DNA of 64,000 bases, from contig CAVYRO010000002.1 of NCBI GenBank assembly GCA_963771005.1, positions 1,550,299 through 1,614,298 on the forward strand, read 5' to 3'. The notes under the pieces were generated by a model, which was not told the DNA's origin, searched no databases, and worked only from the letters and a program-made list of their open reading frames with translations. Of this stretch, positions 12,779 to 64,000 are shown piece by piece. How positions within the stretch are numbered: position 1 is the stretch's first letter; each line of letters starts with the position of its first letter. This DNA is from an uncultured Bacteroidales bacterium. GTDB lineage: Bacteria > Bacteroidota > Bacteroidia > Bacteroidales > GCA-2748055. The translations under genes and the position numbers were made by a program.

Positions 12779-12897
12779 AGGTAATTGTTTTTTGGTATAT
12801 AAAGCTAATATAGAGGGATTCATAGAAATGACAAAAACTATTTTGTGAATGGCGACCTTTTTGATTTATTTGCAATGCAAACGAAAGTCCCTGAAAC

Positions 12898-13791: not shown

Positions 13792-13794
13792 AGA

Positions 13795-14669: not shown

Positions 14670-14754
14670 AGACCCCAAAAAATCACTTCCTTCAGCGGGA
14701 GGATTTATTTATCAACACTCACACGGTGAAGAAAATGTTAATAAAAATAATTAG

Positions 14755-14929: not shown

Positions 14930-14934
14930 TGTAT

Positions 14935-15060
14935 GGGGAATGACCATCATTGCAGGGGAATGACCATCTGGCAGGGGATTGACCATCGTGGCGGGGGAAT
15001 GACCATCGTGGCGGGGGAATGACAATCATTGCAGGGGATTGACAATCATTGCAGGGGATT
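14935..15060. repeat. tandem repeat, about 6 copies of a 20-bp unit (GGGGAATGACCATCATTGCA)
   Basis: The units were read directly and are slightly degenerate. There are no unique spacers. Confidence 0.85.
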
Positions 15061-15070
15061 GTGCGAATTA

Positions 15071-15086
15071 ACAGGTCGCGACCTGT
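15071..15086. repeat. ACAGGTCGCGACCTGT palindrome at a convergent gene junction (possible bidirectional terminator)
   Basis: A perfect 16-nt palindrome, 21 nt from the stop of the SDR gene. Confidence 0.6.
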
Positions 15087-15106
15087 CACTGCGGGTCTGT
15101 GAAATT

Positions 15107-16033
15107 CTATTTGATCTGGAATTCGATACCGGTTAATTTTTCACTTTCTTTCCAGAGGCGTGCAGCCACGCCCATATCGCCCCTGACCGGATCGATCTCT
15201 TCTCCAGCGGGATATCCGCGCATGCTGCCCATACCCGAAGGGCCGTAGTACCGGCCGGTTCTCACCTCATTGGCTGTTGCAGCATAAAGCAAAGGCAGGG
15301 ACCCATCCTCGGCAGACTGCGCAAACCACTCACTAACATGTTTTTGGATCCAGCCTTGTACTTTTTTGCCTTCCATTTCAGGACCTGCTTCCTGCAGATG
15401 CGTGGCTGCCCATCCCGGATGAGCCGCCACCGAAAGAATCCGTTTGCTGGCCAGCCTGATCCTCTTGTCCAGTTCCAGCATAAACAGCAGGTTCGCCAAC
15501 TTGCTTTGTGCATAAGCCTCCCGTTTGGAATAAATTTTCTCCCGGTTTAGATCATCAAAATTTATCTCTCCTTTTTTATGAAGCAAGCTTGATACAGTTA
15601 CTATCCTTGAGCCCGGTTTCTTCGCTATAAGATCGAAGAGCAGCGCCGTTAAAACAAAGTGACCCAGGTGATTTACACCGAAATGCAATTCAAATCCCTG
15701 GGCGGTGCGTTGTTCGGGCAGATGCATCACACCGGCATTGTTAATGAGAACGTCGATCTTCGTAAAGAATTTGTGTACCTCAGTCGAAAAATTCCGGATG
15801 GATTCAATGTCTGCGAGATTGAGCTGTACCAGTGCGAGCCTGGCATGGGGGAGGTCTCTGCGTATGCGGTCCGCCGCTTCATTTGCCTTCGTCATATTGC
15901 GGCAGGCCATAATCACTTCAGCATGATTTTTCGCGAGATGATAGGTTGTCCAGTACCCGATACCGCTGTTTGCCCCGGTAACAACGATAACTTTCCCGGC
16001 CTGTCCGGGAATATTTTCAAATGACCATTTCAT
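15107..16033 (-). CDS. short-chain dehydrogenase/reductase (SDR) family oxidoreductase
   Basis: VTGANSGIG is the Rossmann motif. NNAG and the YAQSK catalytic Tyr-x3-Lys are present. Confidence 0.85.
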   Translation of the reverse strand: MKWSFENIPGQAGKVIVVTGANSGIGYWTTYHLAKNHAEVIMACRNMTKANEAADRIRRDLPHARLALVQLNLADIESIRNFSTEVHKFFTKIDVLINNAGVMHLPEQRTAQGFELHFGVNHLGHFVLTALLFDLIAKKPGSRIVTVSSLLHKKGEINFDDLNREKIYSKREAYAQSKLANLLFMLELDKRIRLASKRILSVAAHPGWAATHLQEAGPEMEGKKVQGWIQKHVSEWFAQSAEDGSLPLLYAATANEVRTGRYYGPSGMGSMRGYPAGEEIDPVRGDMGVAARLWKESEKLTGIEFQIK

Positions 16034-16063
16034 GGTAAATCTTTTGAATCAAACAGCGGAAAA

Positions 16064-18193: not shown

Positions 18194-18308
18194 AAGATGG
18201 TATTAGAGCATAAGAATCAGGTTAATGTCATTAAATGCAAGGGAATGACATGTATTTGAAGTGAGAATCAAAACATTATACGAAACTCACCCCAGAAGGT
18301 TATACCCT

Positions 18309-18347
18309 GTAAAGACGTAAAAAGACGTTGTATACAACGTCTCCCTC
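18309..18347. repeat. REP-like palindrome family 2 (AGACGTTG-N-CAACGTCT)
   Basis: gtaaagacgtaaaaagacgttgtatacaacgtctccctc. It is related to the 31131-31250 array. Confidence 0.7.
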
Positions 18348-18399
18348 TCCTCCCCCCCAGCCCCCCCCAGCTACAGCCTTCATAGTACCCTTGCCTTTC

Positions 18400-18918
18400 T
18401 CATTCACCAAACCTCGCGGCTACCTCTTTAAGCGTATCACCGGTCAGACGGTTAATGAGCCATTCATTCATGATCCGGGCACCAAGAGATTTATAAAATT
18501 GAATAGATGGTTCATTCCAATCCAGCACAGCCCATTCCAAGCGTCCGCAATCCCTCTCTACAGCAAGCCGGGCCAGGTAAGTAAGCAACTTCTTGCCGAA
18601 GCCCCTTCCGCGGAATTCTTCCAGAACGAAAAGATCTTCCAGGTAGATGCCGGGCCTGGCAAGAAAAGTGGAAAAATTATGAAAAAAAAGTGCAAATCCG
18701 GCGGGTTGGTTCTCATAATAACCGATGACTACTTCGGCAACGGCTTCATCACTGAAAAGAAATCGTTCCAGGGCAGCTTCCGTGGCAACCACTTCATGCG
18801 AGAGTTTTTCATATTCCGCCAGTTTTTTGATCAAATGGAGTATCAGTGCCGTATCTTCCTTTTCACCCTTCTTTATTACGAATCCAGGTATGCTTGTTTT
18901 CTCCATGTCTTTCATCAT
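18400..18918 (-). CDS. GNAT-family N-acetyltransferase (diamine/spermidine acetyltransferase-like)
   Basis: VLEEFRGRGFGKKLL is the acetyl-CoA-binding motif A. The start was taken at MMKDMEK. Confidence 0.75.
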   Translation of the reverse strand: MMKDMEKTSIPGFVIKKGEKEDTALILHLIKKLAEYEKLSHEVVATEAALERFLFSDEAVAEVVIGYYENQPAGFALFFHNFSTFLARPGIYLEDLFVLEEFRGRGFGKKLLTYLARLAVERDCGRLEWAVLDWNEPSIQFYKSLGARIMNEWLINRLTGDTLKEVAARFGE

Positions 18919-19010
18919 ACAAAAATTTGAGTTTCTTCCGAAAGTAGTCAAAAAAATTTTATATTGAGAAAGGTTAATGTATTTTTACTTAACAACCTTC
19001 TCCTAGCAAA

Positions 19011-19769
19011 ATGAAAAAACTATTGCTGATGATACCGGTGATAGCCCTGACCCTGGTTTCGTGCGGCCGGAAAGAAAACCAGCCTTTGAGGGGGCTCCTC
19101 ATTACCGGGAATGACCATCCCGCCCATAAGTGGAAAGAAACCACCCCGGCAATTCGTGCCATCCTTGAAAAAGATTCACTCGCCGTTATTACCGTAAGTG
19201 AAGATCCGGGCATACTGAAAGATGTCTCCATAGACGATTACGATTTTATCGTTCTGAATTATTGCAATTGGGAGGATCCGGACGGCCTTTCCGAATACGC
19301 TAAAGCAGGCTTTGTTTCCTACCTCCGGGCTGGAGGAGGATTGATCGTTCTGCATTTTTCAAACGGAGCTTTTAACGCTTCCCTGCCGGGAGCCGGAGCT
19401 TCCGACTGGCCCGAATACCGGAATATCGTACGAAGGGTTTGGAATCATAACGGCTTAAGCGCACATGATCCCTTCGGACCCTTCCGGGTGGATATTACAA
19501 AGGAAAAACATTTTATTACCGTCGGGGCAGTGCCGTTTGATACAAAGGATGAACTATACTTTAACCAGGAAGGGGATATGAGTCTGAAACCACTGATAAC
19601 GGCCCGTTCAAAGATTACCGGTGCAGACGAGCCGCTGGCGTGGGCTTATATTTATGGAAAAGCACGGGTATTTCAGACGCTTCTCGGCCACGGCGCTGAA
19701 TCATATGAAGCTGAGGAATTCAGGGGCATTCTGCGTAATGCTGTGAAATGGGTGACAAAAAATGACTGA
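19011..19769 (+). CDS. ThuA-domain protein (lipoprotein)
   Basis: Lipobox LVSCG, and a class-I glutamine amidotransferase-like ThuA pattern (LLITG..HP.H, FQTLLGHG). Confidence 0.6.
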   Translation: MKKLLLMIPVIALTLVSCGRKENQPLRGLLITGNDHPAHKWKETTPAIRAILEKDSLAVITVSEDPGILKDVSIDDYDFIVLNYCNWEDPDGLSEYAKAGFVSYLRAGGGLIVLHFSNGAFNASLPGAGASDWPEYRNIVRRVWNHNGLSAHDPFGPFRVDITKEKHFITVGAVPFDTKDELYFNQEGDMSLKPLITARSKITGADEPLAWAYIYGKARVFQTLLGHGAESYEAEEFRGILRNAVKWVTKND

Positions 19770-49937: not shown

Positions 49938-50171
49938 AATTTGGTGATATGGTGATATGGTGATATGGTGATTTGGTGAAGTGGAAGAGGAAGAGGAACA
50001 CAGATTTGACGGATTTGTGCGGATAATCACGGAGCTAATCTGTGATAATCTGTGTAATCTGTGGTTAAACTTCCTGAAACCACTTCAAACCATTTCAAAC
50101 CACTTCAAACCATCTCAAACTATCTCAAACCACTTCAAACCATTTCAAACCACTTCAAACCATCTCAAACC
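49938..50171. repeat. composite microsatellite block, inverted copy of 3533-3780
   Basis: (TGGTGATA/T)n, gaagaggaagaggaacac, aatctgtg units and (AAACCAYYTC)n, in the mirror order of the 3.5-kb copy. Confidence 0.8.
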
Positions 50172-51583: not shown

Positions 51584-52570
51584 TCATTCATAAAAATCCT
51601 TTAATATGCCCTCCACAACCCGGTTTGTCCTTGAAGCTGCAATGGCGTCGGATGCGGATCTGCCCTTCCCCCTCAGCTCCTCTATGATGGATTCAATGAA
51701 GGGCTGCTGAATATTTTCCGGAAGGACATACGGATGCTCGCTCACTCCTGCCGGTGTACGAACTGTGACGGGCATATAACTGAAGCATGAAAGACAGATA
51801 GAACCCTCAGTCCCTTCGATCCGGATCAGGTCTGTGCTTCCTGGCCCGCTAACCGTGAAACACCATTGGCCGGAACCCACAATGCCATTCTCAAATTCAA
51901 ACAAGGCGGAAACATAATCTTCTGCAGGATAACGTCCTGCAAGATTACGGACCAATGCCCTTGTTTGTTTCACCGGACCGAACCAAAAATCGAGGATATC
52001 CCATTGATGAGGCGACATATCGGCAAAATAACCACCGCCCCCGATTTCCGGTATGAGATGCCACGACCGGCTTGTTTCGCTGAAATCATTCTCCCGCGGG
52101 GGAAGGAAAAGTTGTACCGATACGAACTTTACTTCCCCGATCACCTTTTTATCCAGGAGCTCCTTTACCAGCATGAACTGCGGAAGTTTTCTCCGGTAAA
52201 AAGCCACGAAGAGCGGTTGACCCGTTTCCTCTGAAACACGGATCATATCCAGGCACTGGGTATAATTCAGGGCCATCGGCTTTTCACAATAAACGGGCTT
52301 GCCTGCTTTGAGTGCACGTATGGTAAATTCAGCATGCGAATCGGGAGGTGTGGCCACATAGACGGCATTCACGCCAGGGTCGTTAATAAGGGCATCTGCA
52401 TCCGTGTACGAAACAGGTACGCCGTGCCTCCGGGCATAATCCTCCGCCTTACCCCGGTCACGCCGCATAACAGCCGCCAGACGTGAACCGGCTATTTTCT
52501 GAAATGCAGGTCCGCTTTTTACCTCGGTCACGTCACCGCAACCTATTATTCCCCAGGAAATGGTTTTCAT
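51584..52570 (-). CDS. Gfo/Idh/MocA-family oxidoreductase
   Basis: ISWGIIGCGDV is the Rossmann motif, and PVYCEKP is the EKP motif. Confidence 0.85.
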   Translation of the reverse strand: MKTISWGIIGCGDVTEVKSGPAFQKIAGSRLAAVMRRDRGKAEDYARRHGVPVSYTDADALINDPGVNAVYVATPPDSHAEFTIRALKAGKPVYCEKPMALNYTQCLDMIRVSEETGQPLFVAFYRRKLPQFMLVKELLDKKVIGEVKFVSVQLFLPPRENDFSETSRSWHLIPEIGGGGYFADMSPHQWDILDFWFGPVKQTRALVRNLAGRYPAEDYVSALFEFENGIVGSGQWCFTVSGPGSTDLIRIEGTEGSICLSCFSYMPVTVRTPAGVSEHPYVLPENIQQPFIESIIEELRGKGRSASDAIAASRTNRVVEGILKDFYE

Positions 52571-52687
52571 GTGTAATTATATTTTTGGTTAACAAAATAT
52601 TCGATGCGAAGTTTCACAAGCGGTACTTTCAAGAGGTTTACATCGACCGGTTCAACGTCCGAAGCAGATCCGCTCCAGTGCAATTAC

Positions 52688-52924
52688 CTGGTGGCTGAAA
52701 AATTACAACCTGAGGCAGGTGCAGTATAAGGCGATGACCGTTTTTTGAGACTGATGCATGCAGTAGTTACCGCCTACGAAAGCGATGAAGAAGACTATAC
52801 TCTTCCGGGTGCTCCCCTGGATGTGGAAAATTATAAGACCAGGATACGCAAAGCCCGGGAAAGGGTAAAAGCCGGTTATTATACTATACAGGAGGATCTG
52901 GAAAAGGAGATGGAGCAATGGTAA
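52688..52924 (+). pseudogene. decayed antitoxin gene (paralog of 58646-58909) with an in-frame TAA at 52727
   Basis: ..AEKLQPEAGAV*GDDRFLRLMHAVVTAYESDEEDYTLPG...AGYYTIQEDLEKEMEQW aligns in register with ..ALKKELHSYIEKADERFLKMVHALAKSYEDEEDIVGY...SGNYITQEDLEKEIKNW. Confidence 0.45.
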
Positions 52925-53240
52925 AGAAAAATTACAAGGTCATCTGGGAAGATGACGCCAAAGCTTCATTACGCAGGATCTACAATTATATTAAAAAGAA
53001 AGAATCTGTTGATCAGGCGATAAAAGTACGAATGAAATACGCGATCTGGCCAAAAGTCTTGGATTTATGCCCCACAAATATATCAAAGATCCTTTCTTAA
53101 AAGATGAGCTTGGGGATATCCGTTTTAAAGTGATCTGGAGTTACAAAATCGTTTATGAAATCACATCTGATGCCGTCATTATCCTTGATATTTTCCACAC
53201 CAGTCGAGATCCAGGTAACCTGAAGCAAATAAAAAAATAA
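52918..53240 (+). pseudogene. RelE/ParE-family toxin, frameshifted near 53041 (paralog of 58903-59220)
   Basis: MVKKNYKVIWEDDAKASLRRIYNYIKKKESVDQAIKV is followed, in the next frame, by NEIRDLAKSLGFMPHKYIKDPFLKDELGDIRFKVIWSYKIVYEITSDAVIILDIFHTSRDP. It shares the same ATGGTAA overlap with the antitoxin as the intact copy. Confidence 0.6.
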
Positions 53241-53341
53241 GTCCAGTAACACTCCCCTCCTCCAACCCTGCTGCAGTAGTTTTTTGTCATGCCTTTGGCA
53301 GTTGCCTGTTTGCGCCGCCCGGCAGCCGGGACCCCGAATCA

Positions 53342-56300
53342 TTGAACGAACAGATTCAGTATTTTGAAATGGGTCGTTTAAGGCAGGTGGTTCGTGTTAA
53401 GGGCAGCCCTACAGGTGATGATATGATCATGCCGGTGGAATATGATGTATTTGGAAGACAAAGCAAAAACTATTTACCTGTTTCGTATACCTATATTAAC
53501 CCGGGAAGTTATCTGAATAATTATACTGCCGCTCTGGATAACCTTTACAATGGAGGATTCAATATACCGGATGCGGAGGGTTACTACTATAGTGAAACTC
53601 AGTTTGACGGATCTCCCCTGAACCGGGTTGTCGCCCAGTCATCCCCCGGGGCCTCCTGGTCAATGTCAACGGGACACACCGTCGAATATTCGTATTCCAC
53701 GAACCAGGCAAGCACGATCCGTTTATGGTCCATGGACGGGAGTACGGCTACTAGTAACGGATGTTACACCGAAGGTGAATTATACGTAAACACGGTTACC
53801 GACGAGAATGGGAACCCGTCCCGGGTCTATATTGATAAAAAAGGAAGATTGATCGCTAAAGATGACACTCTCTCTGTCAACTATAGAACCTATTACGTCT
53901 ACGACTATTACGGAAGCCTGCGTTATATATTCCCCCCAAAAATGGCAAAGGATTTTGGTACCAGCGGGACCCTCCAATATACTCCTTCCACAACGCTGGT
54001 GGTTGGACTGGCTTTCTACTATCAGTACGACGATATGGGACGGGTTGTAATCGCCCAGGAACCTGGAGCCGGACAGAAATACCTGGTTTATGACCACAGG
54101 GACCGGCTTGTGGCCACTCAAAACGAAGAGGAGAGAAATGACTCAAAATGGTATTGCATAAAGTATGATGCATTGAACCGGCCGGTGATCGAGGGAACTA
54201 TAAATTCCAGTTATAGCCGTGAATCTTTACAGGCTACAGTCGATGCATATAATTTCAGTGAAGATTTTGAGACACTGAATCCTTCACAGGTTAATACATC
54301 GCCAGACTACGGCTACAATGATATTTCCTTTCCCATGGAAATAGAGCCATTAAAGATCTACTATTATGATGATTATTATGATTTTGGAACAAATTACAAT
54401 TACAAGACCAATGAGATGGCCGCTAGCGGCGATAAGTCGTACAAGCTAAAAAATGCGTTGACTGCCACCCGAACAAAAGTTCTTGACGGATCTCTTCCGG
54501 TAACCTGGCTGATCTCGGTTTCTTACTTTGATAATTATGGACGGTTGATTCAAAATATCTCCAACAATCACCTGGGGGGGTATGATATTGTCACCTCGGA
54601 ATACAAGAACACCATCAATAATAACATCACCAGGATCAAGCAGGAACATGGGATAAGCGGAACCACGGTGGATCATACCCTCATGTACCGCTACACGTAT
54701 GATCACACCGGGGGCCGGTTACTGGAATCCTATCTGACCTTTGACCAGGAGGATGAGATCATGCTCTCGGCCTTAAAATACAACAAACTGGGTCAGGTTG
54801 ACGAGAAATACCTGCATGGAGACCTGTCCACCAACAAGGCCATCCAGAAACTCGATTATATTTACAACATACGGGGTTGGCTGAAAAAGATCAATGATGC
54901 CTCGCTGAGCACTCCTGGAGATGTTTTTGGTATGGAACTGCTCTATGATGATTATATCTCAACGCTCGGTTCAAGTGGTGACAAGCAGTACAACGGGAAT
55001 ATTACCGCCATGAAATGGAACACCACTTTGCAAGGCGCCGGACTGGAAGGGTATGAATTCCGGTACGATGGTCTGAACCGGCTAACTTCGGCTAATTACG
55101 GTTACGGGACAAGTTTATCAAATTCCGGCAACCGGTACGGAGTATGGGGTATCACTTATGATGAAAACGGAAATATCCTTACCCTGAAACGAAACTCTGC
55201 AGGATCGCTTATGGATGATCTCACCTATCAGTACGACTCCAGCCTGCCAAACCGTCTTAAATCCGTTGAAGACGACGGGGATGTTAATACGGGATTCAAA
55301 AACCTTTACTCGTCGACAACGGAATATACTTACGACGAAAATGGAAGTATGATACGTGACTATAATAAAGTCAGTGGTTCATCCTATGCCTTGATCTCCT
55401 ATAACCATCACTTTAACCTTCCGGTAAGCGTAACGGTGGACACTAAAACGTTGAGTTATTCCTACGATGCCGGTGGCAAAAAACTAAGATTTAACAACGG
55501 GGATAGTCAGAATGTCGATTATATGAATAACTTTGTTTATGAAGATGGTTCTTTGTCATATATATTAACTTCTGAAGGCAGGATCGTCTATAACTCCGGC
55601 TCGCTCTCCTGGCAGTATTTTCTGAAAGATCACCTGGGCAATGTCAGGGTGGTAATCAATGAAAACCAGGATATCGTTCAGGTGACCGATTATTACCCCT
55701 TTGGTCTTTCCCGGCCGGTTATCGGTGATGGCACCCAGAAATACCTCTACAACGGGAAAGAAATTCAGGAATATGCCGATTGGTACGACTATGGTGCCAG
55801 GATGTATGACCCGGCGCTGGGGAGGTGGCATGTTGCAGATCCGTTGGCGATTAATAGACATAACCTTTCATCTTATAATTATTGTCGCAACAATCCAATT
55901 TTATTTATTGATCCTTTTGGGCTTTCAGACACCACTTATTCACAAGGAGATATAACTAAAAAAAATTATAATTTGCCTGGAGTCGTTCATAAATATGAAT
56001 ATGCATGGCTTAATCGATTTCATGGTGCTGGTGGTCAAGGAAATCCATTTGATGAGGAATTCTGGAGACATTTAGAAGAAGAATGGAGAAGAAATGGACA
56101 AAAAGCTGGTAAAAAAGCGGACAGGGAAAGAGAAGCTGCCATACTTATGCAGAACTGGCAAGATTATAAACACAATTATAATCAGCTTTGGGATATGATC
56201 AATCAAATTCAGAACAATACTGCAAATGTTGCCACAAACGGAGGGGGTGGATATACAATTGATATGCAAAGAATAGCCGAATCACCTGATGGAACTGTAA

Positions 56301-56695
56301 GTTCATTTACAGCATATGGCCCGACTCCTTTACAACCTGTTAGTGGTTATATATTAGAGCCTGGTGGGCCATCAACAACAACTAGAGGTCAAGACAAGAG
56401 AATTCCTGCTGGGACTTACAATGTAGACCCTCTTAGTAGCACAAGTCATCCTAATGTTTACAGAGTTTCAAATGGGCAAGTACCTGCTGACAGGTATATT
56501 TTAATACATACGGGAAATTATCCTTCAAATACTTTAGGTTGTCTTTTACCGGGAAGCTCGTACAGTATGGTAAATGGTAATTATGCAGTATGGAATAGTG
56601 GAACGACCCTTAATTCCTTGCGTTCTTTACTTGGTGGTAATAGTGCAACATTAAATATTTCTGACATTCCGATTTTTAATTTTAATAACTGGTAA
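53342..56695 (+). CDS. Rhs/YD-repeat toxin (DUF6443-type) lacking its normal N-terminus; C-terminal YkuD/L,D-transpeptidase-like (DUF5675-like) domain
   Basis: IQYFEMGRLRQV...PVEYDVFGRQSKNYLP is a DUF6443-type start motif. Many YD repeats follow (YxYDxxGRL/I). The RHS core end is YYPFGL...[22 protein letters not shown]...NNPILFIDPFGL at 55910-55924. The 256-aa CT contains IPAGTYNV...RYILIHTGNYPSNTLGCLLPG. An in-frame stop lies 21 codons upstream of the TTG at 53342. Confidence 0.85.
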   Translation: MNEQIQYFEMGRLRQVVRVKGSPTGDDMIMPVEYDVFGRQSKNYLPVSYTYINPGSYLNNYTAALDNLYNGGFNIPDAEGYYYSETQFDGSPLNRVVAQSSPGASWSMSTGHTVEYSYSTNQASTIRLWSMDGSTATSNGCYTEGELYVNTVTDENGNPSRVYIDKKGRLIAKDDTLSVNYRTYYVYDYYGSLRYIFPPKMAKDFGTSGTLQYTPSTTLVVGLAFYYQYDDMGRVVIAQEPGAGQKYLVYDHRDRLVATQNEEERNDSKWYCIKYDALNRPVIEGTINSSYSRESLQATVDAYNFSEDFETLNPSQVNTSPDYGYNDISFPMEIEPLKIYYYDDYYDFGTNYNYKTNEMAASGDKSYKLKNALTATRTKVLDGSLPVTWLISVSYFDNYGRLIQNISNNHLGGYDIVTSEYKNTINNNITRIKQEHGISGTTVDHTLMYRYTYDHTGGRLLESYLTFDQEDEIMLSALKYNKLGQVDEKYLHGDLSTNKAIQKLDYIYNIRGWLKKINDASLSTPGDVFGMELLYDDYISTLGSSGDKQYNGNITAMKWNTTLQGAGLEGYEFRYDGLNRLTSANYGYGTSLSNSGNRYGVWGITYDENGNILTLKRNSAGSLMDDLTYQYDSSLPNRLKSVEDDGDVNTGFKNLYSSTTEYTYDENGSMIRDYNKVSGSSYALISYNHHFNLPVSVTVDTKTLSYSYDAGGKKLRFNNGDSQNVDYMNNFVYEDGSLSYILTSEGRIVYNSGSLSWQYFLKDHLGNVRVVINENQDIVQVTDYYPFGLSRPVIGDGTQKYLYNGKEIQEYADWYDYGARMYDPALGRWHVADPLAINRHNLSSYNYCRNNPILFIDPFGLSDTTYSQGDITKKNYNLPGVVHKYEYAWLNRFHGAGGQGNPFDEEFWRHLEEEWRRNGQKAGKKADREREAAILMQNWQDYKHNYNQLWDMINQIQNNTANVATNGGGGYTIDMQRIAESPDGTVSSFTAYGPTPLQPVSGYILEPGGPSTTTRGQDKRIPAGTYNVDPLSSTSHPNVYRVSNGQVPADRYILIHTGNYPSNTLGCLLPGSSYSMVNGNYAVWNSGTTLNSLRSLLGGNSATLNISDIPIFNFNNW

Positions 56696-56706
56696 ACTGA
56701 ATTAAA

Positions 56707-57497
56707 ATGAAAAAAATATTATTTATAAGTTTAGTTTCAATATCATTTATACTAAACGGACAAAACTTATAGAAGAGAGTCTCTCAAAAGCAGATGGCGA
56801 AAAAGTTGAATTATCTGAGTTTAATAAAACAAATTACAATAAGGTTTGGATGAAAAATCAAGATGATGTTATAGGTTATATAGGAGATAATTATCAACGA
56901 ATATATATTCACTTAATATCTGTGATTAAAAATCAATTAGTAGATAATGAATACTTTGTATATGGGAAATCAAAGGTTAAAAGCAATGTATGTGATTTTC
57001 AAGGAAAGTTTACAATTACAGATGTGCGTGAATTTAACAAAACAGAGAGGGAAGCTTTATACAAAGAAGCATTAAAACATGGTGACCAAGAAGCTGCCAA
57101 TAAATTAGGGAAAGCACGAGGTTTTGTCTTAGCAGAATACTTTTTATTGGAAAATCCAGAACAAAAAGGGAGTGGCCTTTTTAAAGGAGTTGTAAAATCT
57201 TACTTCTATGTTGATGAAAAAGGCGAATTGTTTTTTGATGACCTAGATTTGGGTTCTAGTGATACTTATTGCAATAATCAATTTGTTGGTGTTTGGCAGA
57301 GTTATTATACTAGGGCGCAAAAACCATGTAATTGGGGGGCATATAGGATACCCAACTCAGGAGATTTAGATATTGGAGCCGGTGAGTTTTCTCCAAACAC
57401 GAAATACTTGGAGAAAGGATGGGATACTTATTATCTGGCATATAATAAATCGGAAAGTGAAGCCCGAAAAGAAGAAAAACTTGAATGGTGGAAATGA
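56707..57497 (+). pseudogene. candidate immunity protein for Rhs-CT1, exported (signal peptide), split by a 1-nt deletion in the A-run at 56761-56766
   Basis: MKKILFISLVSISFILNGQN* is followed in the -1 frame by KLIEESLSKADGEKVELSEFNKTNYNKVWMKNQDD.... It lies immediately downstream of the toxin stop. Confidence 0.45.
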
Positions 57498-57501
57498 TAC
57501 A

Positions 57502-57528
57502 GAAAAGCCCGAGCAATCGGGCTTTTTC
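57502..57528. terminator. bidirectional Rho-independent terminator
   Basis: gaaaagcccgagcaatcgggcttttt has a 6-bp GC stem flanked by an A-run and a T-run. It sits between convergent genes. Confidence 0.6.
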
Positions 57529-57529
57529 T

Positions 57530-57800
57530 TTATCTATTCTTCCATAACTCAGGGTCTCGGTTTGTATGCCATACGGCTGAAACAATTATGGTTTTATTTT
57601 TTTCGTCAATTGTAAAGTGAACCATAAATGGGAACAGGTTTAAAACAGCAGTTCTCACGCTGTTGTAACGGACATTTGAAGCTTTTGGGTTTAGCCTGAT
57701 AAAATGGACTTTTTCATGGACTTCTGCAGTAAATCTTTTACCAAGTCCTTTTTGTTGTTTGTTATACCACAGGGCAGCTTCCCGAATATCTTCTTTTACA
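57530..57800 (-). pseudogene. ParE/RelE-like toxin gene, 5' end displaced by the IS66 remnant; no cognate antitoxin
   Basis: ..TVKEDIREAALWYNKQQKGLGKRFTAEVHEKVHFIRLNPKASNVRYNSVRTAVLNLFPFMVHFTIDEKNKTIIVSAVWHTNRDP is a ParE pattern. Codons upstream of T41 are encoded by IS sequence. Confidence 0.5.
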
Positions 57801-57872
57801 GTAAGCCTTCGGCCATCTGCATCTTGATTTGATTTGTAATACCGTTTAGCTTTGCCCCCAAAGCATGAATTT

Positions 57873-58169
57873 ATGAAAAAGGAGCAAAGAGAACAACAGC
57901 GGGAGAAGATGTTTTCTCTCATTGAAAAATGGCAGCAAAGCGATCAACCCCAGAAAGACTTTTGCCAGGAACATGGAATTAAGCTTGCCACATTTTACTA
58001 TTGGCAGAAAAAACTCCGAAATCGTAACCATGAAAATCACTCGGGTTTTATACCCATGGAAATATCCTCGTCTGATTCCAGAATAGTCGAGATCCGATAC
58101 CCTAACGGAGTGATCGTTCAGTTGCCAGGACTTGACCTTAGACTCCTGAAGCAACTGGTCCATCTTTAA
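57873..58169 (+). CDS. IS66-family accessory protein TnpA (orf1)-like
   Basis: MKKEQREQQREKMFSLIEKWQQSDQPQKDFCQEHGIKLATFYYWQKKLR is typical of IS66 orf1. Confidence 0.6.
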   Translation: MKKEQREQQREKMFSLIEKWQQSDQPQKDFCQEHGIKLATFYYWQKKLRNRNHENHSGFIPMEISSSDSRIVEIRYPNGVIVQLPGLDLRLLKQLVHL

Positions 58170-58184
58170 ATGTAGCTTTTTCGT

Positions 58185-58457
58185 ATGTTTACCCTTACCT
58201 CATCCTACCGGTATTATTTTTATGCCTGTGCGACGGATATGCGAAAAGGCTTTGACGGATTATGTGGGCTGGTGCACCTAGAGCTGGGGCGCAGACCTGT
58301 AACCGGTGAAGTATTCGTCTTTGTAAACCGTCAGCGTGATAAGATCACCAATGTAGAGCCTTTTGCCTGGTTAAAAAAGGTTCTTACCCTGATCCCTGAT
58401 TACTCAATACAGAAACTGGAGGATCTGCTTCCGGGAAACCTCATTCTATCTGAATAG
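58185..58457 (+). pseudogene. IS66 TnpB (orf2) N-terminus fused to the C-terminal tail of the IS66 transposase (internal deletion)
   Basis: YRYYFYACATDMRKGFDGLCGLV...GEVFVFVNRQRDKI is TnpB-like. It is followed directly by TNVEPFAWLKKVLTLIPDYSIQKLEDLLPGN, a transposase C-terminus. Confidence 0.6.
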
Positions 58458-58645
58458 GAAATCTTATCTTTGGGGGGTGCAGTTGGCCGAAGGCTTACCG
58501 TAAAAATTGGGATGGTGAGCAACTCTCGCGCTATCTGTGCGCTGGAGATCCCCAAGGTTTTAGCCAGTTACTATTGCGTAATGAATAAGGATCATTCACT
58601 CAGTTGAACTAAAAGTGAATATTAATCGTTAAATTTACGGAAACA

Positions 58646-58909
58646 ATGTTACAGGAAATCATGAACACAGCAGCATTAAAAAAAGAGCTTCACAGCTATA
58701 TTGAGAAAGCGGATGAAAGGTTCCTGAAAATGGTTCATGCATTAGCTAAGAGTTATGAGGATGAAGAAGATATTGTTGGTTATGAAGCCGATGGTAGCCC
58801 AATAACAAAGGAAGCCCTTATAAAAGAAGCAAGAGAAGCTTCTGCACAAGTTAAGTCCGGGAATTACATCACCCAGGAAGACCTGGAAAAAGAGATAAAA
58901 AATTGGTAA
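58646..58909 (+). CDS. antitoxin of the RelE/ParE module (intact copy)
   Basis: 87 aa and acidic. It overlaps the toxin start (ATGGTAA-type overlap) and is a paralog of 52688-52924. Confidence 0.55.
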   Translation: MLQEIMNTAALKKELHSYIEKADERFLKMVHALAKSYEDEEDIVGYEADGSPITKEALIKEAREASAQVKSGNYITQEDLEKEIKNW

Positions 58910-59220
58910 GGAAAAAACTTCCCGTTCGATGGTCCCCAAAAGCTAAGCAGAGGCTTGATAATATCTACGACTATATTGCTAAAGACTCAGTAAGTGCGGC
59001 CAGATATGTTAAAAAGTCTCTGGTTCAATTAGGAGGAAGTCTGGGACACTTCCCGGAAAAATACTCCAGAGAAGAATACCTGGCTGATGAACCGAAAAAC
59101 TACCGGTCGGTATCCAAGTGGCGATACAAGATTATTTATGAGGTAACTGACGAGTATGTGAATATCATTACCCTCTTTAATACCAGTCAACATCCTTCCA
59201 AAATAAAAAGAGACAAATAA
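58903..59220 (+). CDS. RelE/ParE-family toxin (intact copy)
   Basis: WSPKAKQRLDNIYDYIAKDS...YRSVSKWRYKIIYEVTDEYVNIITLFNTSQHP is a ParE/RelE pattern. Confidence 0.7.
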   Translation: MVRKKLPVRWSPKAKQRLDNIYDYIAKDSVSAARYVKKSLVQLGGSLGHFPEKYSREEYLADEPKNYRSVSKWRYKIIYEVTDEYVNIITLFNTSQHPSKIKRDK

Positions 59221-59254
59221 ACAATCCCCAGGCCTCCCCACCTCCAACCCTTCT

Positions 59255-59331
59255 GCAGCAGTTTTTTGTCCTGCCTTTTGCAGTTGCCGATTGCGCCGCG
59301 CATGGCAAAAGGCACGCCAAAAAACTGCTGC
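59255..59331. other. long imperfect hairpin conserved after both TA modules (only the left arm is present at 53256-53318)
   Basis: gcagcagttttttg pairs with ccaaaaaactgctgc. Inside it, tgccttttgc pairs with gcaaaaggca. Confidence 0.55.
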
Positions 59332-59696
59332 CCCGGGCAACGGCACATAATGTGTCCGTATATGCAACCCTCCGCTAAAAATAAGCTCCTACTTCCAACC
59401 GATATTTTTTCTTTTAACTGAAAACCCTCCCTGTAACGATGGGGCTGCACATACGGGAACATTATGTACCATTGCCACACCCGCCCCCACGCACGCCGAC
59501 CCTGCGCAGGCGGCACATTGCCAGGCCCCGCAAGGCCATACCCGCAGGGACCTAGAGCCTGTCAAAGAGCCGCCTGCCGGCCGGAAGACCCGCAAGCAGC
59601 ACCGGCAAAAGCAAGCCATCGCGCTAATGCCCTCCCCGGATTGCTTTTACCGGAGCTGCCGCGGAGAAATTACCTTCGAACCTGGATTAATCGCTT

Positions 59697-59909
59697 CATT
59701 TTAACCACTTAGAGCAAAGGTAAAGCCACCGGCCATACCCGCGCAAGGTCAAGCCCGTTGGGTTTTGGAGAAAAAATTTTATGTCGGTTTAACCGGGGAT
59801 AATCCAGGAAACGAAGATCCCTGATGCTAACGAAACCTGTAAAAATTTTTTCACCAAAAACCTTGCCTGCCCCCGCTGGCTTTGGAGGTTGCCTAAGTGG
59901 TTAAAAATG
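59697..59909. promoter_or_regulatory. inverted-repeat-flanked 180-bp segment (candidate invertible promoter or closing helix of a structured RNA)
   Basis: The left IR is cattttaaccacttagagcaa (59697-59717). The right IR, reverse-complemented, is catttttaaccacttaggcaa (59889-59909). The core 12-mer is perfect. A TACCTTTG (TAnnTTTG) box lies on the minus strand at 59715-59722, just inside the left IR. Confidence 0.3.
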
Positions 59910-60046
59910 CAGTGTTCTGTTCAAATAATCCGGGAAAGGAACGGAAGTTTTTTCTTTTAATTGAGATAACTGAAAACGGAAAACTTTTTCAGCTAAAGAC
60001 TTCAATTAAAAGAAAAAATCGCTACTTTCGAGTAATAATAAACTTT

Positions 60047-61047
60047 ATGGGTTGCCTGAAACTTGCACGTAACGAAAAAAATGAACCTGTTTTGAGGTGC
60101 GTCTGGAAATCTTCCGGATGTTCAAAAATGGGCGTAAATTGGTATGATTACGGGGCCCGGATGTATGACCCGGCGCTGGGGAGGTGGCATGTCGCGGATC
60201 CATTGGCATTAAATGGTCATAGCCTGTCACCTTATAATTATTGCTTTAACAATCCGATCAATATGATTGATCTCTTGGACTGTGGCCTGGAGGTGGGAAT
60301 AACCGCCGTCATCCAACACTGGGATATAGGGGCTGTCATGGTGGCAAAAGTCGGCTTGGTGTCTTAGTTGATGGCGTTGGTGATTTTTTTAGTAAAGTGG
60401 GTAATACCATCAGTAGTAGTTTAGGTGGAGAAACGGATGGTGAATTTGGTTGGGGCAATATGGGATCTGAATTAATTGGTGGAGGATGGGCAGAACAACA
60501 ATTAGATCAAGCACTTTTATCAGCCCATTCGGAAGGGGAGAAAGAGGGTATAGCTGAAGATGCTCGAAGAACGGTTGAAACTCTAACTCGCAATGTGGGA
60601 GTTTATTATTATAAAAGGGATGAATTAAATAATCTGTTTCAGGGAATTGAAGATAATGCCAGTTCGGGAGGGGCTGGAGGAGACTTATCAAGTATGGGAG
60701 ATAATCCGCCAGACCACCCAGAATATAAAACGCCTAAAGGTGGAGATAGAAAAGTTAGAAATCCAAATGGAAAGGGGTCTGGTTGGATTGATAATAAAGG
60801 ACGAGTTTGGGTGCCAACTGACCACAAAGGAACACATGCTCCACATTGGGATAGGGAACTACCTGGCGGAGGGCACGAAAATGTATATCCATATATGAAT
60901 CCAGGTTTTAGTATTACTCCTGAGGATGTCTTAAGAGGATTAGTGATCGTAGGAGGTGCAGCAATAATTATTTTTGATATAGTAACGATACCCTCTGGGG
61001 AAGGTATGATTGGCGTTGAAATGATAAGAAGAGCTGTTGCTCCTTAA
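60047..61047 (+). pseudogene. orphan Rhs C-terminal cassette 2: core-end remnant plus toxin domain with G-W-x-D..W-x-P..H-x-P-H-W-D motif; 1-nt deletion near 60272
   Basis: MGCLKL...[45 protein letters not shown] is followed in the next frame by (P)LGLWPGGG...KGSGWIDNKGRVWVPTDHKGTHAPHWDRELPGGGHENVYP. A 30-nt run is identical to the main rhs gene (ggatgtatgacccggcgctggggaggtggcatgt). Confidence 0.6.
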
Positions 61048-61057
61048 ATTATGTGAT

Positions 61058-61633
61058 ATGATGAAATTTATAGAAAATTTTGAAGAATTGCTCCCCTATA
61101 ATAGGGAGCATTATATTGATTTTCTAGATGATGATTTTGATGCAGAGACAAAATGGTGTGCTGTTTCGCTTCAAATAAACAGTGAGAATGGAGAAACTAG
61201 TTTGTCCAAGTTTGTTGATGTTTTTGGATTGATTTTTAAGAATGTAGTATTAAAGCTTGACAACGGAGTTTCTTGGATTATAAACCATGATGATAAAGAC
61301 ATGAACTGGTTTCTTAATGACAAGGATAATTTAGAAGCTTTAAGAACCGTATTTAAAATAAATAATGTTCAAGATACTTTTAAGGGCTCGTTGATTCTTG
61401 AGAAAGAAAATCTATTAGAATTAGCACAGGATTTAATTTCATACCCATATGTTTTATCCTATAAGAATTTAGATATTTCACATAGTAAATTACAGTTTAT
61501 AATAAAAATAACCAGTCATTTGACTATTGATTTGTTGAGTACGGATAAAGAAGTTCTAAGAAAAATTGTTAAAGAAAACAGTTCTAGCAAAATCATAATA
61601 AAAGAATACAGAGGTACTTCACTTTGGACTTAG
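61058..61633 (+). CDS. candidate cytoplasmic immunity protein for cassette 2
   Basis: It begins 11 nt after the toxin stop, has no signal peptide and is acidic. A terminator follows it. Confidence 0.45.
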   Translation: MMKFIENFEELLPYNREHYIDFLDDDFDAETKWCAVSLQINSENGETSLSKFVDVFGLIFKNVVLKLDNGVSWIINHDDKDMNWFLNDKDNLEALRTVFKINNVQDTFKGSLILEKENLLELAQDLISYPYVLSYKNLDISHSKLQFIIKITSHLTIDLLSTDKEVLRKIVKENSSSKIIIKEYRGTSLWT

Positions 61634-61660
61634 ACTTAATTATTAAAGTGCGATATAACA

Positions 61661-61688
61661 GAAAAGCCCGATTGCTCGGGCTTTTTTT
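61661..61688. terminator. Rho-independent terminator (the same hairpin as 57502-57528 with the stem-loop flipped)
   Basis: gaaaagcccgattgctcgggcttttttt. Confidence 0.6.
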
Positions 61689-61694
61689 CATTCT

Positions 61695-61796
61695 TTAAAA
61701 TTTAGCTTTCCCATCCAATAAGTCTTTCATCCTTTTTTTAGTCAGCATAGAATTAATAATCTTAATCAGTGCATTTTTCTCATCTTCATCGAGTTG
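61695..61796 (-). pseudogene. 3' remnant of a minus-strand gene (..LDEDEKNALIKIINSMLTKKRMKDLLDGKAKF*), cut by cassette 3
   Basis: The reading frame is open only up to the breakpoint at about 61797. The tail resembles C-termini of XRE-type regulators. Confidence 0.3.
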
Positions 61797-62891
61797 GATA
61801 ATAAGGTCAGCGGCTCATCCTATGCTTCGATCTCCTATAATCCTCATTTTAACCTTCCGGTAAGCGTAACGGTGGATACCAAAACGTTGAGTTATTCCTA
61901 CGATGCCGGTGGGAAAAAGCTAAGATTTAACAACGGGGATAGTCAGAATGTCGATTATATTAATAACTTTGTTTATGAAGATGGTTCTTTGTCATATATA
62001 TTAACTTCTGAAGGCAGGATCGTCTATAACTCCGGATCGCTCTCCTGGCAATATTTTCTGAAAGACCACCTGGGCAATGTCAGGGTAGTAATCAATGAAA
62101 ACCAGGATATCGTTCAGGTGACGGATTATTATCCCTTTGGTCTTTCCCGGCCGGTTATCGGTGATGGCACCCAGAAATATCTTTATAACGGGAAGGAAGT
62201 GCAGGAGTATGCGGACTGGTATGATTATGGGAAGAGGTTTTATGATCCCAGTTTGGGCAGATGGCACGTGGTTGATCCGCTGAGTGAAAAATCCAGAAGA
62301 TGGTCGACTTACCAATATAGCTATAATAATCCTATTCGGTTTATTGATCCAGATGGTATGCTGCCTGGTGATCCAAATGATCCAATTACTTCATTATTTT
62401 ACTCAATTGTTGATTATTTTCATTTAAAACACGATCAAAATGAAGGAAATATTAGATCAGTTGGACAAACTGTCATGAATATGAAACCTACTGCAAACGA
62501 TTCAAAGGGAGAGGACATTGTTTCAATTAAAGTAGGAGGCAGTACAGGTAATAAAAATATCGTTCAAACAGGAGCTCAAGTAAAAGTTGCATTAAATGAG
62601 GATAAAGGTATAGTCACAACTGGTGAGATTCATGTTATTGCAGCAAGAACTTATGGAGCCTCTGCTGAAGCTTCGGTTTATGAGGAAAATGATGCTACAA
62701 CTCCTACCATTGAAACGGAAGTTGATGCTGGACCTACTACATCACCTTCCACACCTGAATTACCTGTTAAAGTTAATCCTAAAGCTCTTTTAAGAACTAT
62801 TAATGGAGCTATTGAAACTTTACAAAACTATTTTAATCAAAAAACAGATGAAATCACACATCCAGAGAAATATATTCAGAAAGAATGGTAA
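61794..62891 (+). CDS. orphan Rhs C-terminal cassette 3: about 380 nt near-identical to the main rhs core, plus a distinct CT toxin of unknown type
   Basis: 61800-62180 is near-identical to 55366-55745 (NKVSGSSYA.ISYN.HFNLPVSVTVDTKTLSYSYDAGGKKLRFNNGDSQNVDY...). The sequences then diverge: WYDYGKRFYDPSLGRWHVVDPL...NNPIRFIDPDGM plus 170 novel residues. Confidence 0.65.
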   Translation: MDNKVSGSSYASISYNPHFNLPVSVTVDTKTLSYSYDAGGKKLRFNNGDSQNVDYINNFVYEDGSLSYILTSEGRIVYNSGSLSWQYFLKDHLGNVRVVINENQDIVQVTDYYPFGLSRPVIGDGTQKYLYNGKEVQEYADWYDYGKRFYDPSLGRWHVVDPLSEKSRRWSTYQYSYNNPIRFIDPDGMLPGDPNDPITSLFYSIVDYFHLKHDQNEGNIRSVGQTVMNMKPTANDSKGEDIVSIKVGGSTGNKNIVQTGAQVKVALNEDKGIVTTGEIHVIAARTYGASAEASVYEENDATTPTIETEVDAGPTTSPSTPELPVKVNPKALLRTINGAIETLQNYFNQKTDEITHPEKYIQKEW

Positions 62892-62940
62892 TTACTTTTA
62901 TTACTTTATTCAAATAATATACTGGTATACCTTTGTTATA

Positions 62941-63393
62941 TTGGGAATTGTAATTATTTCTGATATAATAAGTTTTATTAACATGTTCAGTAAGAGTGAT
63001 TTTATTACATATTTATTTTTTCTCTTATTAATTTTAGCTGAAATCGTATTTATAATTGCAACAATTTGGCTAATTAATTATCAATTTTCCAAATATGCTT
63101 TCTATATAATATTAATTTTTTGGACTGCTCAAATCTTATTTTTTGGAATTAGGGGGAACGTATATAGTTTTACATCGGGAATTGAATTAGCTTTATATAT
63201 TAGATTTAATCCGCACTTTGATTTAGGTACTTTCTTTAATTTTTGGAGCAAAGAATTTAGAATTGAGCTTAATGCCAAAAGTCAGCGAGAATACTTTGGA
63301 ATAAATATTTTACCCTTAATACTGTCCATATCATTAGTATTTTTAAGAAAGAAATTAAAGAAGGAGTACTATTTACCTAATAAACAGCTTTAA
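62941..63393 (+). CDS. candidate polytopic membrane immunity protein for cassette 3
   Basis: It has four to five hydrophobic helices (ILGIVIISDIISFI, YLFFLLLILAEIVFIIATIWLI, AFYIILIFWTAQILFFGI, INILPLILSISLVFL). The start is uncertain: TTG at 62941, ATG at 62983, or the upstream ORF limit at 62803. Confidence 0.45.
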   Translation: MGIVIISDIISFINMFSKSDFITYLFFLLLILAEIVFIIATIWLINYQFSKYAFYIILIFWTAQILFFGIRGNVYSFTSGIELALYIRFNPHFDLGTFFNFWSKEFRIELNAKSQREYFGINILPLILSISLVFLRKKLKKEYYLPNKQL

Positions 63394-63398
63394 TTCAA

Positions 63399-64000
63399 TA
63401 TGCTTGAACTAGAGGCAAACTGGTACGATTACGGGAATAGATTCTACGATCCTGCTTTAGCCCGTTGGCATACACAAGATTTAATGGCTGAATTCTCTTA
63501 TGATCGACCACCATACAATTATGTTTCTAATAATCCAATTATTGCCTTCGATCCGGATGGGAACTTTGAAACTAAACTAGGAGCCTGGCTGTATAAAGTA
63601 TTTCACGGAGGTGTGGCAATTCGTCAAGATGAAGGAGGTGAATACTACGTTTACGAGCAAACTGAAAATGAAGAAGGCGCTGATATTACATTAAAGAAAA
63701 CATTTGACAGAAAAGGTAGAAGTGAAGGAAGAGATTTAAAACAAGAAGCTGCAGTAGAAGCCTATGAAACCCAATATAATTGGTCAATGGCTTTGGATGA
63801 GATGGGCGTCGAGTATTCATATACAAATGATCTAAGCGAAGCTAGGCAAAGTACAATTCAGGTAGCAGCTAATGTGTTATTACCAAATGCTTTAAAGACA
63901 ACAACGGCCGTTACAAATACAGCGAAAACTAGTATTAAAAGTGTAGACGATTTGCTCAGAGCTGCAGGGAAACTTGAAAAAGTAAGAGGTGCTGAGCAAG
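63399..64000 (+). CDS. orphan Rhs C-terminal cassette 4 (partial, runs off the window)
   Basis: MLELEANWYDYGNRFYDPALARWHTQDLMAEFSYDRPPYNYVSNNPIIAFDPDGN is followed by a novel CT. It is absent from the ORF track because no stop occurs before 64000. Confidence 0.6.

Follow-up and report, generated by a model that had tools for sequence, protein, structure and literature searches.

A largely disabled Rhs toxin cassette array in an uncultured Bacteroidales bacterium keeps the probable footprint of a cassette-carrying element family

The window analyzed here is a 64,000-nucleotide (nt) stretch of an uncultured Bacteroidales bacterium (GenBank assembly GCA_963771005.1, contig CAVYRO010000002.1, positions 1,550,299 to 1,614,298 of the forward strand). 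At ~52.6 kb its content switches from housekeeping genes to an island of Rhs toxin genes and cassettes, toxin-antitoxin (TA) modules and an insertion sequence (IS) remnant, which occupies the ~11 kb up to the window end. We conclude that this locus is a largely disabled Rhs cassette array, keeping the probable footprint of a family of cassette-carrying elements. New Rhs tips and orphan cassettes are usually ascribed to unspecified horizontal transfer and homologous recombination. The features in Table 1 agree with the inventory of an earlier reading of this DNA (the sequence-only reading), which listed a Rhs gene, cassettes, TA modules and an IS remnant, and profile matches uphold its decayed left TA pair, truncated ParE gene, IS66 remnant and intact TA paralog.

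Profile searches against NCBIfam locate four Rhs core ends (TIGR03696; E 1.6e-18, 9e-15, 6e-18 and 3e-11), carried by the large Rhs open reading frame (ORF) at 53342-56695, the first ORF of cassette 2 (60047-60367), cassette 3 (61794-62891) and cassette 4 (63397 to the window end). After each core end comes a different C-terminal region (CT) and then a small ORF, the candidate immunity gene (Imm). CT1 is a DUF5675 domain and CT2 an Ntox37 domain according to Pfam, and CT3 and CT4 match no family in Pfam or NCBIfam. GC content is 0.30-0.37 across the cassettes and 0.47-0.48 near 59.0-60.5 kb. These core ends, unrelated tips and downstream immunity candidates bear out the polymorphic-toxin island proposed earlier. 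The only parts that look intact are the second TA module (TA2), Imm2 and Imm3.

Table 1. Features of the island and its left neighbour, in window coordinates (aa, amino acids; CE, a conserved structured element).
Feature	Position	Strand	Evidence or remark
Oxidoreductase gene	51584-52570	-	left neighbour of the island
intB remnant, 31 aa, C-terminal region of a XerC/D-like tyrosine recombinase	52641-52733	+	tblastn, phmmer
TA1 antitoxin, lacking ~28 N-terminal residues	52745-52924	+	alignment to TA2 and L005 antitoxin
TA1 ParE, split by a frameshift	52918-53100 / 53067-53240	+	Pfam ParE_toxin on 3' fragment
Post-ParE repeat, copy 1	53252-53318	+	90% identical to 59234-59299
Headless Rhs gene, 1117-aa ORF, TTG start	53342-56695	+	Pfam/NCBIfam matches
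Partial DUF6443 domain	53345-53701	+	Pfam
Core end, ...NNPILFIDPFGL	55691-55924	+	TIGR03696 E 1.6e-18, residues 784-861
CT1, DUF5675 domain	56267-56629	+	Pfam; structure model
Imm1 signal-peptide stub, MKKILFISLVSISFILNGQNL, ATG 56708 to TAG 56770	56708-56772	+	translation
Imm1 body ORF, 215 aa	56850-57497	+	homologue alignment
Terminator-like GC-rich hairpin and T run after Imm1	57499-57527		repeat search
ParE, 5'-truncated by the IS66 derivative	57530-57793	-	Pfam ParE_toxin E 2.5e-6
IS66-family element, internally deleted	57794-58505	+	28-nt inverted repeats, 93% complementary
IS66 TnpA	57852-58169	+	NCBIfam, E 2e-23
TnpB N-fragment fused to transposase C-terminal motif	58185-58457	+	Pfam TnpB_IS66, DDE_Tnp_IS66_C
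TA2 antitoxin	58646-58909	+	7-nt overlap with ParE
TA2 ParE, intact	58903-59220	+	Pfam ParE_toxin E 1.6e-12
Post-ParE repeat, copy 2, with 27-bp hairpin 59255-59281 / 59305-59331	59234-59331	+	kept in L005, L061
CE, structured non-coding element in the GC-rich segment	59703-59902	+	alignment of 20 sequences
CE helices P1 and P2	59703-59717/59889-59902; 59722-27/59878-83	+	nested
CE helices P3 and P5	59743-49/59860-66; 59763-80/59842-59	+	nested
17-nt inverted repeat 59948-59964 / 60002-60018; third copy 59405-59421	59948-60018	+	precedes the -7 box
TAnnTTTG-like -7 box, 16 nt before ATG	60023-60030	+	conserved upstream block
Cassette 2: MGCLKL leader, core end, Ntox37	60047-61047	+	frame analysis, Pfam
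Cassette 2 ORFs	60047-60367 and 60274/60397-61047	+	split by frameshift
Imm2 candidate, 190 aa, no signal peptide	61061-61633	+	ORF; source-assembly gene call
Cassette 3, 5'-truncated Rhs fragment: core end and CT3	61794-62891	+	TIGR03696, blastn
Imm3 candidate, 181 aa from ATG 62848, hydrophobic	62848-63393	+	ORF; gene call
Cassette 4: MLELEAN, then WYDYGNRFYDP...NNPIIAFDPDG, CT4	63397-64000	+	translation; TIGR03696 E 3e-11

Both the 5' end and the signal peptide are absent from the large Rhs gene. The gene's match to DUF6443 covers profile positions 23-137 only, the N-terminal part being missing, and an in-frame stop lies directly before its TTG start. Full-length homologues have a signal peptide and ~50 to 130 extra N-terminal residues: relatives from Marinifilum, Labilibaculum, Plebeiibacterium and Reichenbachiella (1134-1227 aa) start with a signal peptide, and one relative seemingly starting where the window gene does has an in-frame signal peptide and ~130 residues upstream in its own DNA. 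The YD-repeat shell gave 1427 matches at E <=1e-10, the best at 41% identity over 77-80% of the query; its best relatives all carry PF20041, the closest being Marinilabiliales proteins at ~41% identity, and its Pfam RHS_repeat match falls under the cut-off. The core end terminates in the DPxGL cleavage motif. Upstream of the large gene we find only TA1, a recombinase stub and the oxidoreductase gene, and no intact expressible head gene.

Imm1, which had been taken for an exported immunity gene, has had its signal peptide severed. The signal-peptide stub and the body lie in different frames, parted by a deletion of ~22 nt relative to homologues which, at >=90% identity, are 270 aa long with a continuous signal peptide beginning MKKILFISLVSISFILNGQNLPTSSTKFIEESLSK... 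An independent Logan assembly from another run (L001; L numbers denote related loci) is 100% identical over 55804-57528, a stretch spanning the deletion, which shows that the deletion is real, and in L115 (94% nt identity) CT1 stands beside an intact 270-aa Imm1. With the large gene truncated at its 5' end and Imm1 disrupted, there is no expressed, intact main gene with which the orphan cassettes could recombine. Decayed copies of the CT1 and Imm1 cassette also occur in long co-directional arrays of other assemblies: in L083, positions 2121-2821 hold a CT1 stub of 157 aa together with an Imm1 signal-peptide stub that an IS has cut, and L116 (1-13505) has three near-identical orphans of a CT1/Imm1 array starting mid-core (MNGRLYDPAVGAF...). 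A hairpin near-identical to that after Imm1 follows Imm2 (61658-61686; 24 nt identical as the reverse complement of 57499-57527), and the paired hairpins may mark a common 3' boundary of the cassettes.

CT1 is predicted to be a periplasm-acting cell-wall toxin of the L,D-carboxypeptidase/transpeptidase-like type. Its relatives, mostly short toxins with partial core ends, have invariant H106, G116 and C117 in the motif ...ILIH.GN....T.GCLLPG. The AlphaFold model (pLDDT 85) has the LD-carboxypeptidase Pgp2 as its best match among solved structures (probability 0.90), a weak one (Foldseek E 0.047, TM 0.40), and strong fold matches to phage DUF5675 proteins (E 1e-6 to 1e-9), among which one is named an L,D-carboxypeptidase/transpeptidase and others are part of large tail proteins. 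The fold matches and the exported immunity family point to a periplasmic cell-wall target. Tlde1 of Salmonella is a stand-alone type VI secretion system (T6SS) effector, a peptidoglycan enzyme with an L,D-transpeptidase fold. CT1 resembles Tlde1 and the Campylobacter Pgp2 in its conserved His...Gly-Cys residues, in having Pgp2 as its best structural match and in an exported immunity family that fits a periplasmic target; unlike them, it is a DUF5675 domain without sequence match to either, its delivery, if any, would be on an Rhs protein, and its activity is predicted. Sequence searches of solved structures in the PDB with CT1, CT3 and CT4 gave no match, and CT3 has no homologue among 5.8 billion proteins.

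Cassettes 2 to 4 are core-homologous downstream fragments, each with a distinct CT and an immunity ORF, and differ in their starts: cassette 3 has neither an ATG (TTG only) nor a promoter, cassette 4 has an ATG, and cassette 2 has both an ATG and a promoter-like block. Cassette 3 begins inside the Rhs shell, just past the terminator-like hairpin, and its positions 61798-62282 align with 55362-55846 of the large gene over 485 bp at 90% identity, including 300 bp at 94%. Cassette 4, which is cut by the window end, has its ATG 3 nt past the Imm3 stop and seven residues ahead of WYDYG. Cassette 2 shares a 34-nt identical tract with the large gene and is frameshifted by a 1-nt deletion at IDP|LGLW (~60272), inside the DPxGL motif; one added base restores the frame through into Ntox37. 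Imm2 matches no family in Pfam or NCBIfam. Clustered at 90% identity, Imm2 and Imm3 each stand alone, with no relative detected in other samples. The absence of a signal peptide from Imm2 fits an Ntox37 toxin that would act in the cytoplasm, and Imm3, read by eye, looks like a multi-pass membrane protein.

The start of cassette 2 sets it apart from a truncated fragment. In a search of 1.84 billion representative proteins with its first 75 residues, ~80 of the best 150 matches are short proteins whose alignment begins at their own residue 1, 3 or thereabouts (mostly 230-330 aa long, with some shorter fragments), while full-length Rhs proteins align to the query only from residue 26-31 on. Within this leader, M1, G2, C3 and W20 are invariant and K5, L16, R17, C18 and K27 nearly so, with the conserved residues differing synonymously between genomes; no Pfam or NCBIfam model covers the MGCLKL stretch. 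An ATG, a conserved leader and a promoter-like block of its own mean that cassette 2 is no silent truncation. The three cassettes of the sequence-only reading each keep a core end, an unrelated CT and a small ORF, but cassette 2 is a frameshifted gene and not a random silent truncation.

Upstream of this start, the GC-rich segment, previously described as ORF-free, is not featureless and holds the conserved structured element CE (Table 1). Window positions 59696-59906 are conserved in L004 and L085. In the alignment of 20 sequences, pairing holds for 91.6% of cells, compared with 36-62% in controls with slid partners, and the covariation score is 0.232, against 0.06-0.10 in controls; compensatory changes occur in 12 of the 17 pairs of the inner helix P5, and P2 and P3 are invariant. 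The window copy, folded as DNA, has a z-score of -5.1. Only 2 of 855 cells in the helices are of G-U type, which suits a DNA hairpin or palindrome no less than an RNA. Because a primase and recombinases adjoin CE in other genomes, a reasonable guess is that it might be a replication origin or a recombination site. Rfam gave nothing credible at E <=1 in 52000-64000 and nothing at the gathering score in five related loci.

A search of metagenomes with the CE pattern returned 27 loci, of which 22 are true copies; the single match in viral contigs was judged to be chance. A recombinase gene, intB, lies 0.65-1.6 kb upstream of CE in 12 of the 13 loci with >=1.6 kb of upstream DNA, and a primase gene lies <=6 kb from CE in four of the five loci with >=4.5 kb of downstream DNA. 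In most copies the promoter block comes next, followed by diverse core-end toxins and small ORFs. This block, 30-50 nt before the ATG, consists of TTCAATTAAAAGAAAAAA and then the TAnnTTTG-like box, which we take to be a Bacteroidetes -7 element, and it occurs in ten copies at eight loci (the window, L004, L005, L006 (two), L007, L009 (two), L010 and L061). The 17-mer TTTTTTCTTTTAA(T/C)TGA is present three times in the window spacer, twice direct and once inverted, with an inverted copy further upstream of the promoter-like block; both orientations occur in related spacers, and it may be an operator, a recombinase site or part of the promoter. An invertible promoter between the 17-nt repeats was considered and rejected, as no locus has the opposite orientation and the right arm always faces the ATG.

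The genes around CE in other Bacteroidota belong to a recurrent unit. There, leader-toxin/immunity pairs follow a DnaG-like primase of ~900 aa, two tyrosine recombinases and a non-coding spacer of 0.7-2 kb. The primase has CHC2 zinc-ribbon and Toprim domains (TIGR01391 over its first 360 residues), and the recombinases, intA and intB, are XerC/D-like and fall below the XerC/XerD equivalog cut-offs. The order primase-intA-intB is found in L005, L006, L009, L018, L032 and L033, and L005 has intA, intB, antitoxin, ParE, spacer, leader toxin and immunity gene, the order of window positions 58646-61633. The intact element measures ~7.7 kb and comprises CE, the promoter, a short toxin (start codon, short leader, Rhs core end and variable tip), its immunity gene, the primase, the two XerC/D-like recombinases and sometimes ParDE. 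One contig (L111, JGI Ga0164315_10008957; 7831 bp) has identical 123-nt ends, which gives a 7,708-bp unit with the order CE, toxin, immunity, primase, intA, intB, and is either a circle or a tandem copy.

Units occur in tandem, two in L006 and three in L009, and lie downstream of full-length or long Rhs genes in L009, L018, L032 and L059, which belong to different Bacteroidota orders. In L006 the two units match at 99.9% identity for 2,076 bp, as far as the WYDYG codons, and are unrelated beyond them, and in L009 the Rhs gene and the next cassette have in common a 24-nt identical tract in the WYDYG-region codons. A universal site-specific attachment (att) site in the core-end codons was rejected as unlikely: third positions vary freely across 126 core ends, so that the synonymous sites are not conserved between genomes. 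In L018, a Chitinophagales-like metagenome-assembled genome (9905-10858 and 18331-19335), the primase, two recombinases and spacer come with another leader (MAGISSRAMGRLDNK(Y/F)EYNGKEKQ...). This leader derives from the Rhs core itself, its DNA matching the 3' core of the Rhs gene upstream at 79-86% identity, and the N-terminus of the short toxins therefore differs by lineage.

Two traces of this element are visible elsewhere in the island. At its left edge, directly ahead of TA1, lies the recombinase stub, 68-78% identical to intB of L005 and L006 (tblastn E 4e-9 and 1e-8; phmmer E 4e-6), and L005 has the same order of intB and TA module; the sequence-only reading rightly saw a decayed TA pair here but overlooked the stub. 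TA2 has a ParE_toxin gene with a small overlapping upstream antitoxin gene, as expected of a type II ParDE module, and a TA2-like pair lies between intB and the spacer in L005 and L090; its antitoxin matches no family in Pfam or NCBIfam. The TA modules and the GC-rich segment, earlier regarded as debris, are thus not unrelated remains, because the same order recurs beside two recombinases and a primase in other genomes. A repeat follows both ParE stops in the window (81% over 88 nt in L005). Copy 2 includes the whole hairpin, and copy 1 breaks off within the loop, where it abuts the headless Rhs gene; this looks like a deletion junction. The IS66 copy is a non-autonomous remnant: it lacks a DDE domain, and its truncated TnpB runs into a transposase C-terminal motif of 31 aa. 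Joining the flanks of this IS66 derivative restores no start codon to the minus-strand ParE.

The window holds no delivery genes, as had been claimed: among the upstream ORFs >=150 aa, 30 of 47 were scanned, and all are metabolic or housekeeping genes, with no secretion genes. They encode the oxidoreductase, a beta-lactamase-fold protein, peroxiredoxins, Fe-S/flavin oxidoreductases, a P-type ATPase, glycosidases and others. To our knowledge, the delivery route of DUF6443-type Rhs proteins in Bacteroidota is uncharacterised. At three loci, the gene of a large secreted partner protein of ~1000-1300 aa precedes each full-length Rhs gene of the DUF6443 type (L002, Marinifilum fragile, 1-23405; L059, Plebeiibacterium sediminum, 4198-19339; L003, 4081-13426), and in two of these genomes the Rhs genes adjoin type II secretion/type IV pilus-like genes (T2SSE ATPase, T2SSF, prepilin-like), which could be a dedicated export route for this Rhs class. 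Neither the partner protein nor such secretion/pilus-like genes are present in the window. Outside the island and unrelated to it, intergenic tandem repeats lie between the peroxiredoxin-like and beta-lactamase-fold genes (50077-50171; 10-nt unit, 9.5 copies, 85% match), with further 8-nt and 9-nt arrays at 49942-49979 and 50036-50063.

Several known systems resemble parts of this picture. Enterobacterial Rhs orphan-cassette arrays, described in E. coli, Salmonella Typhimurium and Serratia (PMC3967940, PMC10539506), have the same TIGR03696 core end (...DPxGL), unrelated tips and cognate immunity genes, and downstream fragments holding a variable length of core able to recombine with the larger gene. 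In contrast to them, the window has no intact main gene, VgrG, PAAR or T6SS context, its shell is of the Bacteroidota DUF6443 type, whose full-length members carry a Sec signal peptide, one of its cassettes is a self-contained short gene with conserved leader and promoter, and the cassettes of related genomes are interleaved with a primase and two recombinases. An integron does not fit either: the window has no integrase, the related recombinases recur in each unit and fall below the integron-integrase cut-offs, and CE lies upstream of the promoter and not at the cassette 3' ends as attC would. NBU-type elements of Bacteroides have one integrase, a primase, a relaxase with oriT, a tRNA target and cargo within ~8-10 kb. 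The present element resembles them as a small element with tyrosine recombinase, primase and cargo, but differs in having two Xer-like recombinases and a Rhs neighbourhood, with no relaxase seen here.

The sequence-only reading saw a working orphan array, an expressed Rhs gene with CT1 and its immunity gene followed by silent, replaceable cassettes, and the four core ends with unrelated tips and downstream ORFs, the 485-bp homology of cassette 3 to the large gene and the 34-nt identical tract of cassette 2 all speak for it. Nevertheless, the large gene lacks its signal peptide and DUF6443 N-terminus and has only a TTG after an in-frame stop, the immunity gene of CT1 is disrupted, cassette 2 opens with the conserved leader at an ATG of its own, behind a promoter-like block, and the window is without delivery genes. 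Recombination through core homology is plausible given these tracts, but an intact expressed recipient is missing, and we regard a working array at this locus as quite unlikely. Another view is that the island has been kept as a store of immunity, with Imm2, Imm3 and possibly others downstream guarding against the toxins of neighbours as the toxin parts decay, in the manner of the acquired interbacterial defence clusters (AID and the recombinase-associated rAID-1) of gut Bacteroidales. Damaged toxin parts beside intact Imm2 and Imm3 ORFs, the recombinase stub at the 5' edge and the co-directional, low-GC cassettes (0.30-0.37) agree with this, and the description of rAID-1, a XerD-like recombinase at the 5' end of co-oriented low-GC orphan immunity arrays with repeated intergenic motifs, resembles it (bioRxiv 10.1101/471110; PMC12247911). 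Imm1 itself is broken, however, Imm2 and Imm3 have no close relatives in other samples (as above), and related loci keep full promoter-driven toxin genes with a primase and two recombinases per unit, and we consider this explanation unlikely.

Membership in rAID-1 itself was judged unlikely on the differing architecture. An rAID-1 cluster has a 5' XerD-like recombinase >=44% identical to BF9343_RS08045 and two or more co-oriented downstream genes of <=41% GC for orphan immunity proteins. Both have a XerD-like tyrosine recombinase tied to co-oriented low-GC toxin-linked arrays, conserved non-coding sequence between genes and signs of gene acquisition, but rAID-1 comprises one recombinase and immunity genes, whereas here a unit of the related genomes combines a complete toxin under its own promoter with CE, a primase and two recombinases. 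The window retains just the 31-aa stub of a recombinase, and its co-oriented cassettes keep full toxin parts, with no match to an immunity family. The truncations and frameshifts might instead be errors, and the cassettes misjoined pieces of full-length genes. Assembly easily goes wrong at repeats, core ends among them, and only the source assembly shows the frameshift of cassette 2 and the missing 5' end of the large gene. Against this stand the independent assembly that is identical across the Imm1 deletion, similar arrays with truncated cassettes in unrelated assemblies (L083, L085, L116, L006 and L009), the position of the frameshift outside any homopolymer and the length of the source contig (1.9 Mb), and we consider an artefact very improbable.

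We think instead that the region is probably a decaying Rhs toxin/immunity array interleaved with what remains of a small mobile element, present in at least two copies, and that the array was built by cassette-carrying elements together with core-end recombination. The recurrent gene order points to elements that deliver cassettes, besides the exchange described by the classical orphan model. According to this proposal, an element would bring a new toxin/immunity pair beside a resident Rhs gene, and the immunity gene would be expressed from the element's own promoter. The common core-end sequence would then let homologous recombination graft the new tip onto the Rhs shell, pushing the old tip downstream. 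In the window, the machinery of the element would have been lost, leaving only the 31-aa recombinase stub.

A more specific version, which we offer tentatively and hold to be possible without favouring it, is that the island is the fossil of a ~7.7-kb element family, with a pair of XerC/D-like recombinases, a DnaG-like primase, a hairpin of 200 nt with strictly Watson-Crick pairing as candidate origin or recombination site and often ParDE, that ferries ready-to-express Rhs-tip toxin/immunity cassettes between Bacteroidota. These would be parked in tandem behind resident Rhs genes, core-end homology would let the host swap tips, and the MGCLKL leader would be a native N-terminus and not a truncation scar.

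Several observations weigh against an origin of the array from cassette-carrying elements. The link between element and Rhs genes could be plain adjacency, with synonymous positions of the core-end DNA varying between genomes. Among the loci examined we detected neither an att site nor an empty site nor an excision junction, so that mobility rests on gene content, tandem arrays and one matching-ended contig, and tandem copies could also yield a contig such as L111. The short toxins, having neither signal peptide nor Rhs shell, show no evident delivery route as far as their sequences tell. The cassette 2 frameshift, present in one assembly, could be a sequencing error, selection on the leader is weakly purifying over all 31 codons (nonsynonymous rate dN 0.42, synonymous rate dS 0.68), and CT1 matches solved structures weakly. 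The cassettes could still serve an intact Rhs gene located in another part of this genome. We found no published account of the leader, of DUF6443 or of the combination of recombinases, primase and Rhs, in a literature coverage that is incomplete, and it is therefore not certain that the element is undescribed.

In this genome, the locus should not be counted as an active toxin system, since it is largely disabled; its present function, if any, is most likely protection by the surviving immunity genes rather than toxin delivery. The window is thus ordinary in function, if it has one, and the interesting lead is the element family together with CE. Many short proteins annotated as "RHS repeat-associated core domain" form a defined gene class with a conserved leader instead of random fragments. 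If the proposed origin is true, a dedicated vehicle, with its own replication and recombination genes, promoter and structured DNA or RNA element, would make the acquisition of Rhs tips testable in Bacteroidota.

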